Source: a virus | Lineage: Duplodnaviria; Heunggongvirae; Uroviricota; Caudoviricetes | Strand: one strand, 5' to 3' | Virus record (IMG/VR): IMGVR_UViG_2563366853_000009 | Span: 1 to 21,248 of that record | Length of the DNA stretch: 21,248 nt | Part shown: positions 4,373 through 21,248 of the stretch, piece by piece | How positions within the stretch are numbered: the stretch's first letter is position 1 | Layout of the letters: every line of letters begins with the position of its first letter | The notes under the pieces: model-generated | Told to the model about the DNA's origin: nothing | Databases searched by the model: none | The model's input: only the letters and a program-made list of their open reading frames with translations | Program-made: the position numbers and the translations under genes

Positions 4373-4530
4373 AATGACGCCCTCTGGTGGTTTCTTAATA
4401 ACTCACCACCGACGACGCCAATCGTCTGGTGGTGAACTGTGCAGGGTTGGCGTAACCGGGAAACCGACCGGCGCGGATCTCTCCGCCCCCACACAGCCCA
4501 CCATAATTCAGATGTGCGCGTGCATACGAC

Positions 4531-4555
4531 AATAAAAAACACGCTCGCGGCGTGT
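4531..4555 (-). terminator. tR'-like terminator about 90 nt downstream of Q
   Basis: Minus-strand ACACGC-CGCGA-GCGUGU followed by UUUUUUAUU. Confidence 0.45.
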
Positions 4556-4616
4556 ATCTGTCGCGGTCTCTATCCAGGACGCCAATCCCGACGCCAGATT
4601 TTGCTGGCGCGTGAGG

Positions 4617-4646
4617 AATATAGCCCCGGATAACAGATTGAGTCAA
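4617..4646 (-). promoter_or_regulatory. Candidate late promoter (pR'-like) overlapping Q stop codon
   Basis: Minus-strand TTGACT, about 18-nt spacer, TATATT; -35 overlaps the Q TGA. Confidence 0.35.
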
Positions 4647-6654: not shown

Positions 6655-6810
6655 TTACTCCTCAGGTTCGTAAGCTGTGAAGACAGAGACCTCCGTCTGG
6701 CCGGTTCGGATTCGTACCTCGCAGAGGTCTTTCCTCGTTACCAGTGCCGTCACTATGACGGTTAAACAGATGACGATCAGGGCGATTAACATCGCCTTTT
6801 GCTGCTTCAT
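6655..6810 (-). CDS. hok: Hok/Gef-family type I toxin
   Basis: 51 aa MKQQKAMLIALIVICLTVIVTALVTRKDLCEVRIRTGQTEV... matches Hok family (single TM, conserved C-E-x-R); in-frame upstream extension to 6867. Confidence 0.85.
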   Translation of the reverse strand: MKQQKAMLIALIVICLTVIVTALVTRKDLCEVRIRTGQTEVSVFTAYEPEE

Positions 6811-7062
6811 AGCCTGCTTCTCCTTGCCTTTCGGCACGTAAGAGGCTAACCTACGTTTGTATAGCATAGATTGGGCCTCAGATTAATGTTAAGCGTCTTG
6901 CCGGACGCGTAATGTTAACTGGGGCTTTTCTCTATCTGCCTTTGGTGTTCATGCCTGAGGCAGATAGCCTCAAGCACCCGCTGTCATTCTACTTAAGTTA
7001 GGTAAGATTTTCTATGGTATTTCTCCACGTTCCATAAATACGAACGTGTATTATCATTTTTA

Positions 7063-15176: not shown

Positions 15177-17849
15177 ATGAGCACCGATAAACAAGTTTAC
15201 CCACTGTATTACGAAGCAAAAAATGACAAAGTAAGAAAACGTCTCGGTATTAAAGGCGGTTTCTACTGGGCTGAAGCGAAAAAATTATCCATTGCCATAT
15301 CCCGTGGTGCTGTTGCGATTGACGATGCTGGCTACGATGAAGATGACTTTAAAAAACCTGTTCGCGTCAATTTGCCCGTTGTTGATGACCTTCCACCAGA
15401 GGGCGTATTTGATACGGAATTCTGCAACCGTTACGAAAAAGGCGGGGAAGATGGCATCACAATGGTATTTATCGCGCCCTCATCCTCTGCGCAGGACAAA
15501 CCAGCCAGCACTGACAATACCAATGTTAATGGCGAAGACATGACGGAGATTGAGGAGAATATGCTACTCCCGATTTCCGGTCAGGAGCTGCCCATTCGCT
15601 GGCTTGCTCAACACGGCAGCGAAAAACCGGTAACGCACGTTTCACGCGACGAACTCCAGGCATTACACATTGCACGGGCTGAAGAACTACCAGCTGTTAC
15701 TGCCCTAGCTGTTTCCCACAAAACCAGCCTGCTCGACCCGCTGGAAATTCGCGATCTCCACAAACTGGTGCGTGATACTGACAGAGTTTTCCCTAATCCA
15801 GGCAATTCAGACCTGGGACTAATAACTGCTTTTTTCGAAGCATACCTGGACGCTGACTACACTGATCGGGGTCTGCTGACAAAAGAGTGGATGAAAGGAA
15901 ATCGTGTTTCACGCATCACCCGCACGGCTTCCGGTGCTAATGCTGGCGGTGGGAACAAAACCGATCGCAATCCGAATTTAGTACACACCCTCGACACACT
16001 GGATGTGGAGATTGCAGCAGCCACACTTCCGATGGATTTTAATATTTATGAAATTCCGGGCAGCGTTTATCGTCGCGCAAAAGAAGTAGTCCTGAAAAAA
16101 GAAAGTCCGTTCAAAGAATGGTCCGCAGCACTTCGTGCAACCCCGGGTATTCTGGACTATTCCCGCGCCGCTATTTTTGCACTTATCCGAAGCGCACACC
16201 CTGAATTTTATCACTACCCGGGACGCCTTCAGGGGTATATCAACGCCTATTTGACGGAAACTGATCACGAGAACCCCAGCAAGGAAACTCTCACAGCTGC
16301 CCGGCATACGCCGGAAAAAGATATCCTGGAAGAAATTAACCGCGAGGTGGTTACTGAGCGTGAAACAGAAGAAGAAAAACCACAACCATCTGACGCAATG
16401 GCAGGTGAACAGGTAACAACTGAAACAATGGAACCGGATACAACTGAACATTGCCAGAACGCGCAGTCGCTGGATGCTCAGTCGCAGGTGAGTTCCGCTA
16501 ACCAAGTAAAAGTCACCGCTGACGAAGTAAACAAAATTATGCAGGCAGCCAATATCAGCCAGCCTGACGCCGATAAGTTACTTGCTGTATCGCGTGGTGA
16601 ATTTGTTGAGGGGATTAGCGACCCTAATGATCCGAAATGGGTCAAGGGGATCCAGACTCGCGATTCTGTGAACCAGAACCAGCATGAATCGGAACGGAAC
16701 GACCAGAAAGCGGAACAAAACAGCCCAAATACGCAACAAAACGAGCCAGAAACGAAACAACCTGAACCAGTAGTGCAACAGGAACCGGAAAAAGTCTGTG
16801 CCGCCTGCGGTCAGAGCGGTGGCGGCAACTGCCCTGATTGTGGCGCGGTGATGGGCGACACCACGTATCTGGAAACCTTTAATGAAGAAAATCTGGATGA
16901 ATCTCAGGAAAAAGATCCGGAGGAAATGGAAGGCCCTGAACATCCGCACAACGAGAATGCTGGCAGCGATCCGCATCGCGATTGCAATGATGAAACTGGC
17001 GAAGTCGCAGATCCCGTAATCGCAGGAGACATAGAGCCTGGTATTTATTACGGAATTTCGAATGAGAATTACCACGCGGGTCCCGGTGTCAGTAAGTCTC
17101 AGCTCGACGACATTGCTGATACTCCGGCTCTGTATTTGTGGCGTAAAAATGCCCCCGTGGACACTACAAAGACAAAAACGCTCGATTTAGGAACCGCTTT
17201 CCACTGCCGGGTACTTGAACCGGAAGAATTCAGTAACCGCTTTATCGTAGCACCTGAATTTAACCGCCGTACAAACGCCGGAAAAGAAGAAGAGAAAGCG
17301 TTTCTGATGGAATGCGCAAGCACAGGAAAAACGGTTATCACTGCGGAAGAAGGCCGGAAAATTGAACTCATGTATCAAAGCGTTATGGCTTTGCCGCTGG
17401 GGCAATGGCTTGTTGAAAGCGCCGGACACGCTGAATCATCAATTTACTGGGAAGATCCGGAAACAGGAATTTTGTGTCGGTGCCGTCCGGACAAAATTAT
17501 TCCTGAATTTCACTGGATCATGGACGTGAAAACCACAGCGGATATTCAACGATTCAAAACGGCTTATTACGACTACCGCTATCACGTTCAGGATGCATTC
17601 TACAGTGACGGTTATGAAGCACAGTTTGGTGTGCAGCCAACTTTCGTTTTTCTGGTTGCCAGCACAACTGTTGAATGCGGACGTTATCCGGTTGAGATTT
17701 TCATGATGGGCGAAGAAGCAAAACTGGCAGGCCAGCAGGAATATCACCGCAATCTGCGGACCCTGGCTGACTGCCTAAATACCGATGAATGGCCAGCTAT
17801 TAAGACGTTATCACTGCCCCGCTGGGCTAAGGAGTATGCAAATGACTAA
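15177..17849 (+). CDS. recE: Exodeoxyribonuclease VIII (RecE)
   Basis: 890 aa; central and C-terminal nuclease regions closely match recalled K-12 RecE; N-terminus diverges. Confidence 0.9.
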
Positions 17850-18707: not shown

Positions 18708-18902
18708 ATGAGATATGACGATGTTAAACCATGTCCGTTTTGTGGTTGTCCATCAGTAACGGTGAAAGCCATTTCAGGATATTACCGCGCAAAGTGTAAC
18801 GGATGCGAATCCCGAACCGGCTATAGTGGAAGTGAAAAAGAAGCACTCGAAAGATGGAATAAACGAACTACTGGAAATAATAATGGAGGTGTTCATGTAT
18901 AA
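18708..18902 (+). CDS. ralR: RalR (Lar) restriction-alleviation protein / type I toxin
   Basis: 64 aa MRYDDVKPCPFCGCPSVTVKAISGYYRAKCNGCESRTGY...; alternative start at 18696. Confidence 0.8.
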   Translation: MRYDDVKPCPFCGCPSVTVKAISGYYRAKCNGCESRTGYSGSEKEALERWNKRTTGNNNGGVHV

Positions 18903-19044
18903 AATTACTGCCACTATTGAAAAGGAAGGTGGCACTCCTACTAACTGGACAAGATATTCAAAATCTAAATTAACGAAATCAGAATGCGAAAAAAAATGCT
19001 CTCAGGGAAAAAAGAAGCAGGCGTTTCCAGAGAGCAGAAAGTAA
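18895..19044 (+). CDS. ydaC: YdaC-like small protein
   Basis: ATG at 18895 with GGAGGTG RBS; MYKITATIEKEGGTPTNWTRY...; overlaps ralR end. Confidence 0.5.
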   Translation: MYKITATIEKEGGTPTNWTRYSKSKLTKSECEKKCSQGKKKQAFPESRK

Positions 19045-19140
19045 AGCTGATAAATTTTAATTGCGAGAAACTTCTGTCCTCGTGAGTTGCATTATATACA
19101 AATTAGAACTTCATAGCTGATTATTAAAAATCAACCACAT

Positions 19141-19169: not shown

Positions 19170-19191
19170 TCATATCATAAGAGGTATGGCA

Positions 19192-19473
19192 ATGAATCTT
19201 GTGACACTCAAAACGTGGGGAAAACTCAGATATCCGGATAACCCACCATCAATATCAACGCTGAGACGATGGGCAAGGAATGGAAACATTTATCCTGCAC
19301 CTGAACTACACGGGAGGAGTTACAGGGTGGTTCCGGAGGCTTTCTATATCAACCCAAATAAGGTTGATACCGATATAACACACCATCAGCCTAATGGGCG
19401 ACAAGGGAGAGACAGTCCATTACTGGAGAAGTTAAAACATGCAGCGGAAAAAATACGATCCCAATTTGCCTAA
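19192..19473 (+). CDS. xis: Excisionase-like protein
   Basis: Small basic ORF directly upstream of and overlapping int; AAGAGG RBS 7 nt before ATG at 19192. Confidence 0.6.
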   Translation: MNLVTLKTWGKLRYPDNPPSISTLRRWARNGNIYPAPELHGRSYRVVPEAFYINPNKVDTDITHHQPNGRQGRDSPLLEKLKHAAEKIRSQFA

Positions 19474-20515: not shown

Positions 20516-20562
20516 TTTTAACGTAAATGGATTGTTAAATGTATTTTGGTTGTGATATAACC

Positions 20563-20611
20563 AAAAAAGACCGGAATACAGAAATTCGAGTAAATTTCGG
20601 GGAATTTCGGG
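20563..20611. repeat. att-proximal repeats: partial copy of SdsR terminator 3' half plus tandem AATTTCGGG motifs (candidate core/arm sites)
   Basis: AAAAAAGACCGGAATACA at 20563-20580 resembles 20647-20663; AAATTTCGGGGAATTTCGGG at 20592-20611. Confidence 0.4.
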
Positions 20612-20646
20612 AAAACGTTTGCAACTGATTGATTTTAAATACAATT

Positions 20647-20749
20647 AAAAAAAGACCGAATACGATTCCTGTATTCGGTCCAGGGAAATGGCTCTTGGGA
20701 GAGAGCCGTGCGCTAAAAGTTGGCATTAATGCAGGCTTAGTTGCCTTGC
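20647..20749 (-). ncRNA. sdsR: SdsR (RyeB) small RNA with its intrinsic terminator
   Basis: Minus-strand GCAAGGCAACUAAGCCUGCAUUAAUGCC...GACCGAAUACAGGAAUCGUAUUCGGUC-U7 matches recalled SdsR; CTATTCT sigmaS-type -10 just upstream. Confidence 0.6.
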
Positions 20750-20835
20750 TCTTTAAGAATAGATGACGACGCCAGGTTTTCCAGTTTGCGTGCAAAATGG
20801 TCAATAAAAAGCGTGGTGGTCATCAGCTTAAATGT

Positions 20836-20878
20836 TAAAAACCGCCCGTTCTGGTGAAAGAACTGAGGCGGTTTTTTA
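20836..20878. terminator. Bidirectional rho-independent terminator downstream of yebY
   Basis: A-run, AACCGCC...GGCGGTT interrupted stem, T-run. Confidence 0.6.
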
Positions 20879-20906
20879 TTGGAAATCAAAAGGCTATTTT
20901 AGGTAA

Positions 20907-21248
20907 TTAACAGAGTTTTTCAGCTCGCTCTATAAACGGTGCCAGACTCATTTTTTCGCCGGGATTGTTAGGATCATCAATCTGAATCACCGAAATGGGT
21001 TGGGCTTTAGTCTTCCCACTGGCAACTTCCTTTTGTGCGATATCGTTTAAAGGATACTGCACGAGAGTACTTGGGTTAATGACATACAAAGCATTACCCG
21101 GTCGGCAAGTCAGCATCACCTCTTCGCGATTAAACGCCCATTTGTCTTTACCTACTTCAAAACGGCTGACGGTAATCACCTGCGGTGCCGCCAGCGCAGC
21201 TGCAGAACTGGTGAGTAACAGAAACGCCAGAATACTTTTTTTCATCAT
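20907..21248 (-). CDS. yebY: YebY-like periplasmic DUF2511 protein (host gene)
   Basis: 113 aa with signal peptide [20 protein letters not shown]; matches recalled E. coli YebY; start codon at window edge. Confidence 0.75.

Follow-up and report, generated by a model that had tools for sequence, protein, structure and literature searches.

Near the right end of the 21,248-nt DNA stretch analysed here (positions 1 to 21,248 of IMG/VR record IMGVR_UViG_2563366853_000009 from a virus of the Caudoviricetes, termed below the window), a phage integrase gene is followed closely by a bacterial small RNA locus and then by a chromosomal gene, yebY. The question that this arrangement raises is where, precisely, the phage ends and the host begins, and what integration has done both to the phage attachment site and to the small RNAs at the boundary. 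The reading favored here, with a probability of about 0.9, is that positions 20516-20680 constitute the integrase-proximal junction of a lambdoid, Rac-like prophage integrated into the terminator of sdsR (ryeB). This junction would be the equivalent of lambda BOP', located here at the element's right end, and would have arisen by site-specific integration into the Rho-independent terminator of that gene, whose stem arms, GACCGAATAC and GTATTCGGTC, would serve as inverted core-type sites for an exchange of strands within the 7-nt loop GATTCCT. The attP would carry a near-exact copy of the 3' stem arm and of the T-run, so that SdsR would keep a full-strength terminator; RyeA, by comparison, would be split, its promoter and first 55 nt ending up at the far junction beside pphA. 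The phage arm adjoining the core would supply three phased TTTCG repeats for the integrase N-terminal domain, an IHF-like site and a core-like half-site.

The identity of the small RNA is established by several kinds of evidence. The Rfam model for SdsR/RyeB (RF00111) matches the minus strand at 20746..20647 over model positions 1-100 of 100 with a score of 118.1 bits (the gathering score is 38), and the model for SraC/RyeA (RF00101) matches the plus strand at 20643-20787 with 180 bits (Rfam). Aligning the K-12 annotation places sdsR at the coordinates given in the table below. A terminator-like hairpin followed by a T-run (an 11-bp stem and a run of seven T's) lies on the minus strand at 20681..20653, and SdsR as a whole folds with a minimum free energy of -34.6 kcal/mol (z = -4.55). 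The surroundings agree as well: PMC3333887 describes SdsR as lying downstream of yebY with SraC/RyeA antisense to it, and in the window yebY is found on the minus strand with SraC/RyeA on the strand opposite to SdsR. The initial annotation, which was made from the sequence alone, had read SdsR with its terminator on the minus strand and had named this assignment as a point at which its interpretation might fail; the full-length Rfam match, the K-12 annotation and the hairpin with its T-run all uphold it. (At window position 20750, which is the SdsR +1 position according to the K-12 annotation, the plus strand has a T, corresponding to an A in the RNA, where K-12 has a C, corresponding to a G; the T is also present in strain C25.)

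The position of the junction was located by comparing the segment 20300-21248 with complete E. coli genomes. All 5426 of these match, most of them only from position 20646 rightwards, and 228 of the 5426 match the integrase-side sequence as well; in other words, the sdsR site is occupied in 228 complete E. coli genomes, among them O26 and O103 Shiga toxin-producing strains. A K-12 query spanning pphA to sdsR finds an unbroken match in 5189 genomes, so that about 237 have an interrupted site, and the pphA-side junction occurs in exactly 228, the same number as the integrase-side sequence. The window is collinear with K-12 from the SdsR terminator onwards and, within the 3' half of that terminator, has two phage-type bases: an A at 20652 (G in K-12) and a T at 20661 (C in K-12).

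The exchange itself was mapped from the K-12 attB, two attP sites, two integrase-side junctions and five pphA-side junctions. The attB reads ...GAGACCGAACAC/GATTCCT/GTATTCGGTCC... and the attP reads ...AAAGACCGAATAC/GATTCCT/GTTTTCGTCAAC..., where the slashes set off the terminator loop. Free-phage attP is represented by PP818812.1, the integrase of which is 97.8% identical to that of the window and is followed by an intact attP in the order integrase, arm, AAAAAAAGACCGAATAC/GATTCCT/GTTTTCGTC. The integrase-side junctions, in the window and in strain C25, consist of phage-left, GATTCCT and host-right, and the five pphA-side junctions (C25, CS6L, 300709, O26 RM10386 and O103 RM8385) consist of host-left, GATTCCT and phage-right. 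Hence, from this reciprocal pattern of host and phage sequence at both junctions, the exchange took place within ACGATTCCTGT (20662-20672), which is the mismatch-free block common to attP, attB and both junctions and which contains the 7-nt terminator loop. Because this loop has a length of 7 bp and is flanked on either side by inverted repeats, it is the likely overlap region. Thus the proposal that the att core overlaps the small RNA terminator is borne out, E. coli homology starting at 20646 and the exchange falling within 20662-20672; the comparison with an empty site that had been suggested as a check aligns the K-12 attB up to the terminator and does not move the junction elsewhere; and the second core copy expected at the other prophage end does exist. 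That copy is absent from the 21,248-nt window, even with three mismatches allowed, and lies beyond it, next to pphA: in C25, which is the closest occupied genome, the far prophage end adjoins pphA about 42 kb away.

Two relatives deviate from a clean exchange: locus L006 (E. coli ECMA0423) has the host-type sequence GAACCGAACAC to the left of the loop at its integrase-side junction, and in locus L063 a phage-type T occurs three bases past the loop on its right side. Gene conversion between the junction copies or point mutation are possible explanations. The distant phage Tbat2_3 has the altered loop CAATCCT, and a host site for it was sought as an indication of co-variation between loop and overlap; two scans of viral contigs returned none, and a metagenome scan returned three chance matches within unrelated coding DNA lacking SdsR.

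Features at and near the integrase-proximal prophage junction (window coordinates)
Feature	Position	Strand	Basis or remark
Excisionase (xis)	19186..19473	+	Pfam PF07825 (Exc), 52.1 bits
Lambda-type tyrosine integrase, 358 aa	19439..20515	+	Pfam domains, catalytic residues
Two conserved blocks, ATGTTAAAT and GTGATATAAC	20532-20540 and 20552-20561		Outer part of the arm, between int stop and half-site
Phage-borne core-like half-site AAAAAAGACCGGAATAC	20563..20579	+	Copy of core-left
Three tandem repeats AAATTCGAG / AAATTTCGGGG / AATTTCGGGA, candidate arm-type Int sites (P'1-P'3 equivalents)	20582..20612	+	10-11 bp phasing
IHF-consensus-like element CAACTGATTGATT	20622..20634	+	Between repeats and core; read directly
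SdsR (RyeB) with hybrid host/phage terminator	20647..20750	-	RF00111, folding
Phage-derived SdsR 3' end	20647..20663	-	Equals free-phage attP; differs from K-12 attB at 20652 and 20661
GATTCCT, terminator loop, candidate 7-bp overlap	20664..20670		Reciprocal junction pattern
Host-derived 5' stem arm of the SdsR terminator, candidate core-type site B'	20671..20680	-	Identical to K-12; attP has GTTTTCGTC
RyeA (SraC) body	20664..20880	+	RF00101; terminator inverted repeat at 20837-20876
yebY, first chromosomal gene past the junction	20907..21248	-	113-aa ORF; annotated yebY in all matching genomes

What integration does to the two small RNAs differs between them. The last ~17 nt of SdsR are phage-encoded; they consist of the stem's 3' arm (20654-20663, candidate core-type site C) and the U-tract that follows it (20647-20653). 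The folded stability of the terminator is preserved: the hybrid hairpin is predicted at -15.8 kcal/mol, the same value as for the K-12 terminator. It had been left undecided whether the phage supplies or duplicates the SdsR 3' end; because 20647-20663 are of phage type, as the bases at 20652 and 20661 reveal, the phage provides that end rather than merely duplicating it. On the opposite strand, the annotated start of ryeA in K-12 lies 55 nt before the loop, so that the RyeA promoter and the first 55 nt are left at the pphA-side junction, outside of the window, and phage DNA now precedes the RyeA body. A search for a plus-strand promoter reading from this phage DNA into RyeA yielded a sole candidate, TTTGCA-16-TACAAT at 20618-20645, in a segment that is not conserved among relatives, and the number of matches, two versus 1.2 expected in shuffled sequences, does not exceed chance. 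By analogy with the Salmonella prophage PhiW104 discussed below, lysogeny may lower RyeA and raise SdsR here as well. In one relative, from Shigella flexneri SFBU1023 (CP182556.1, locus L005), the SdsR terminator at the junction has several substitutions and a deletion (GACCAACATGATTCCTGTATTGGGTCCAGG-AAATGG), which suggests decay of the small RNA terminator in that genome.

The enzymes presumed to act on this site are encoded immediately upstream. The integrase has a catalytic domain (PF00589, 60.2 bits), a central domain (PF22022, 40.1 bits) and, at residues 3-61, an arm-binding domain (PF09003, Arm-DNA-bind_1, 28.1 bits with a cutoff of 22). The family alignment shows no variation at six residues, R212, K235, H313, R316, H338 and Y347, which by their positions, and by analogy with lambda Int, would form the R-K-H-R-H-Y catalytic set. 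The protein shares 39-41% identity with the integrases of HK022 and HK97 (about 41% for HK022), and a homologue of the adjacent xis gene is annotated as an excisionase in strain C25.

Between the integrase stop codon and the core lie 131 bp that are the phage's own att arm. In lambda, the attachment site POP' has two arms of unequal length: the short one, next to int, contains an IHF site and three adjoining arm-type sites (P'1-P'3), and the longer, distal one contains the Xis and Fis sites. Between the arms, inverted core sites flank a 7-bp overlap. The window resembles this layout in several ways: the integrase has catalytic, central and arm-binding domains, as in lambda and HK022; the short arm next to int contains an IHF-like site and three direct repeats in immediate succession, further repeats being present on the longer distal arm; and the core consists of inverted half-sites around a 7-bp spacer. 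Unlike lambda, the core of which is intergenic between gal and bio, the core here is a small RNA terminator hairpin; the candidate arm-site sequence, (A/T)TTTCG(G/A), is unrelated to that of lambda; and there is an extra, conserved core-like half-site outside of the three repeats.

Two exact copies of AATTTCGGG occur in the arm, at 20593-20601 and 20603-20611, and a third, degenerate copy, AAATTCGAG, can be read directly at 20582-20590. By analogy, these TTTCG repeats are probable arm-type sites for the integrase N-terminal domain, and the integrase would accordingly bind both them and the inverted core sites. The element between repeats and core matches the IHF consensus, YAANNNNTTGATW, and presumably binds IHF; a TAA-N5-6-TTGAT element is kept there in most lineages while the surrounding spacer varies.

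The arm was compared across a family set of 80 IMG/VR loci with integrases 69-100% identical to that of the window, a Salmonella record at 74% and phage Tbat2_3 at 50%, and an alignment was made of 11 lineage representatives. The offsets from the int stop codon are constant (the half-site at about +55, the repeats at +70, +80 and +90, then a spacer and the core at +140), and over 75 of 86 family loci, a set that includes 80 from IMG/VR, conform to this geometry. Invariant across the 11 lineages are AAATTCG, TTTCG, TTTCG, GACCG..ATA and the core, with TTCG/TTTCG retained in all three repeats, while the spacers vary freely. The triplets at the 3' ends of the repeats shift in concert by lineage, being GGG, AGG, GAC or GAA, and they track a beta-strand segment of the integrase N-terminal domain (RRRDKAYYW, RKNDxAFYW, RRSRKTFAW or RxASKSFFW) with one exception, locus L086. 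This fits co-evolution of the arm sites with the arm-binding domain, though shared ancestry could also explain it. The distal attP arm has more TTTCG-type repeats, at about +117 to +150 beside a conserved ATTCAATTAGTTA block, which are without the lineage-specific 3' triplet. Farther out in the integrase-proximal arm, 10 lineage representatives share the blocks ATGTTAAAT and GTGATATAAC almost without change; the 13 nt that separate them vary in sequence but not in length. An interpretation of these two blocks as a -35 and an extended -10 is not supported: by eye, the -10 lacks a conserved final T, and the -35 matches at 3 of 6 positions.

The half-site is the most unusual element of the arm. 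It equals core-left, AAAAAAGACCGAATAC (20648-20663), with one inserted G, all 16 of the 16 core-left bases being matched, and when the 131-bp arm was shuffled 200,000 times, a match as good arose in no more than 19 cases. It lies just beyond the three repeats, about eight helical turns from the core, and its distance from the core, on the upstream side, is 84-85 bp in all relatives, including those whose integrases are as little as 50% identical. One relative, IMGVR_UViG_2728369554_000022 (locus L023), has an 85-bp deletion, ~55-60 bp after the int stop, that runs exactly from half-site to core and takes with it the IHF-like site and all three TTTCG repeats, leaving an integrase-side junction without arm sites. 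Since this deletion lies between the two copies, the half-site and the core can recombine, and the prophage concerned is probably locked in, that is, unable to excise. That the half-site, AAAAAGACCG(G)AATAC, is a functional attP element of this integrase family, one without a lambda counterpart, is put forward tentatively, as a suggestion with the odds somewhat against it. As such an element it may be an auxiliary core-type integrase-binding site that aids intasome assembly or regulation; it may also act as a built-in direct repeat, recombination of which with the core would remove the arm sites and trap the prophage.

These elements admit of other interpretations, each of which has some evidence in its favor. 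The core might be mainly the phage's own terminator, serving a late or tail-fibre operon that converges on int, in which case its likeness to SdsR would simply follow. On the SdsR strand, attP does present a stem-like sequence followed by a T-run between the convergent tail-fibre and int genes, yet when folded it reaches -4.0 kcal/mol (z = +0.71), and the pphA-side version -8.7 kcal/mol (z = -1.01), neither of which is better than shuffled sequence; the -15.8 kcal/mol hairpin exists only in the host/phage hybrid and in attB. This comparison with shuffles leads to the rejection of a phage terminator, which is accordingly given very little credence. A similar question concerns the TTTCG repeats, which could instead bind Xis, Fis or a phage regulator, or could be a neutral tandem duplication kept by homogenisation. 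Their assignment to the integrase draws on anatomy and on the lambda analogy; the distal-arm repeats differ in their 3' triplets; L086 breaks the correlation with the integrase N-terminal domain; and the exact 9-mer is not enriched over the window as a whole (12 matches with at most one mismatch versus 7.4 expected). Against this stand the three repeats with 10-11-bp phasing, ~55-85 bp from the core and with an IHF-like site between, which is the layout of lambda P'1-P'3 and H'; the lambda arm-binding domain of the integrase; the invariance of TTTCG while the spacers drift; and the location of the lambda Xis and Fis sites on the other arm. Some role for the repeats other than as integrase arm sites is therefore judged unlikely.

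As for the half-site, it might be an integration scar--a remnant of an earlier prophage junction or a target-site duplication--and the real junction might then be located there. It is indeed a highly non-random copy of core-left, it is phage-side of the junction in direct orientation, and the deletion in L023 shows that recombination between the copies is possible. As stated, however, this idea is refuted by DNA in attP configuration, namely PP818812.1 and loci L053, L069 and L086, in which both the half-site and the repeats are present, and by distant relatives: the half-site occurs in those of other genera with integrase identities of 50-75%, always 84-85 bp from the core. Moreover, homology to empty-site genomes begins at 20646 rather than at 20563. 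A scar must therefore be considered exceedingly improbable. The same observations bear on how the initial annotation had used the degenerate copy and the tandem repeats. Both are found where it had located them, phage-side of the junction, and both exceed chance expectation; as products of integration, or as evidence for it, they fail, because they already exist in free-phage attP and in relatives. The interpretation of 20516-20680 as an attP-derived arm joined to a host terminator thus accounts for them as parts of the phage.

The rest of the element is Rac-like. Its RecT, whose gene overlaps that of RecE, is identical to that of K-12 Rac at 267 of 269 positions (99%), and its RecE (15177-17849, plus strand) is a mosaic, 72% identical to that of K-12 Rac overall: the N-terminal ~550 residues have diverged, with several indels, and the C-terminal nuclease part is ~99% identical. 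Together with RalA (RF02694, 215.6 bits; Rfam), these constitute the recE-recT-ralR early-left module of Rac; KilR and ydaE-type genes are a further point of likeness, as annotated in the closest related prophage, that of strain C25. The attachment functions are of a different kind. K-12 Rac is annotated in ttcA with IntR, whereas the junction in the window is at sdsR; the Rac pair is IntR/XisR, whereas the int/xis pair here is unrelated, a BLASTP comparison of the integrase with IntR detecting no similarity (E = 1.6). The element is, in other words, a mosaic lambdoid prophage with an int/xis/att module other than that of Rac, in agreement with the earlier description of a Rac-type recET prophage at another site.

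Attachment at this small RNA has a precedent in Salmonella. As summarised in later articles, PhiW104 of Salmonella DT104 (Balbontin et al. 2008, J Bacteriol 190:4075) has its attachment site in the final 23 bp of ryeB, with an effect on ryeA (PMC7380047, PMC3333887, PMC3603311), and in its lysogens the ryeA 5' part is changed, ryeA is less abundant and ryeB more so (PMC7380047, PMC10969437). The initial annotation's statement that prophages integrate at this locus in Salmonella is correct for this phage; its label 'Gifsy-type' has no counterpart in these articles, which give PhiW104 as the sole example and assign it to no group. The case described here is like PhiW104 in that the target is the 3'-terminal terminator of ryeB (sdsR), internal to ryeA, and in that the 5' part of ryeA is replaced; the exchange interval, 16-26 nt from the SdsR 3' end, accords with attachment within the last ~23 bp of ryeB. 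Salmonella-type relatives of the integrase (69-75% identical) sit at SdsR in enterobacteria other than E. coli, and in the Salmonella record OK490361.1 the arm is laid out in the same way, with a core that is identical to SdsR over a longer stretch. The present case is unlike PhiW104 in its E. coli host, probably in its integrase lineage (~74% identity to the Salmonella-type integrase), and in its Rac-like recET/ralR/kilR body; the mismatch-free identity between attP and the K-12 attB is 11 bp here, versus the 23 bp reported for Salmonella.

A broader parallel is offered by phages that insert at the 3' end of a tRNA or tmRNA gene and replace that end with sequence of their own (Williams 2002, as cited in PMC3603311). 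As there, attP holds a copy of the 3'-terminal part of a gene for a structured RNA, strands cross over in a stem-loop, and the RNA gene is rebuilt; unlike there, the gene encodes a regulatory small RNA with an overlapping antisense RNA, of which SdsR is preserved and RyeA is truncated. 'RyeB' has, in addition, already been used to name an island site, as in 'Cfr111.52.RyeB' (PMC10111431). The literature searched yielded no description of the E. coli sdsR site or of its att-arm anatomy. With RyeB attachment known in Salmonella since 2008, the E. coli case and the arm anatomy are ordinary extensions; the conserved core-like half-site in the arm is the one real oddity.

How widely this integrase family uses the site can be judged from its relatives. 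A search of genome contigs with the integrase protein alone returned two loci, one from E. coli and one from Shigella flexneri, and the wider diversity of the family came from IMG/VR. Relatives in the integrated state came from several genera, and without exception they adjoin the SdsR body. In the hosts of the lineages with 69-75% integrase identity, the yebY-side flank is 71-78% identical to K-12 and SdsR is 93-98% identical; because the host flanks have thus diverged while SdsR is conserved, the integrase family targets the SdsR terminator across enterobacterial genera. In both E. coli and Salmonella, then, phages repeatedly use the SdsR/RyeA locus for attachment; one integrase family does so in several enterobacterial genera, with SdsR kept intact and the RyeA promoter and 5' end removed. 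SdsR is an RpoS-dependent porin regulator that has also been reported to regulate mutS and tolC. If these roles hold, then lysogeny could make strains that are otherwise alike differ in stress and mutagenesis phenotypes. Knowing the att anatomy is, moreover, useful for delimiting such prophages and for designing excision assays.

Two further observations concern the sequences used here. The free-phage record PP818812.1 (locus L004) was deposited as 'Actinobacillus phage vB_Apl-pPE4' and names Actinobacillus pleuropneumoniae as its host. Over int and attP it shares 97-98% identity with E. coli prophages, and its attP has a core that corresponds to the SdsR terminator of enterobacteria; the Actinobacillus host label looks doubtful. 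Within the prophage of the window, other Rfam matches on the minus strand, at 4425-4623, 6805-6979 and 18901-19081, belong to the C4 antisense RNA with its a1/b1 targets and isrK, to sok (of hok/sok), and to the RalA antitoxin of RalR; the C4 and isrK set is a P1/Gifsy-type antirepressor control module.
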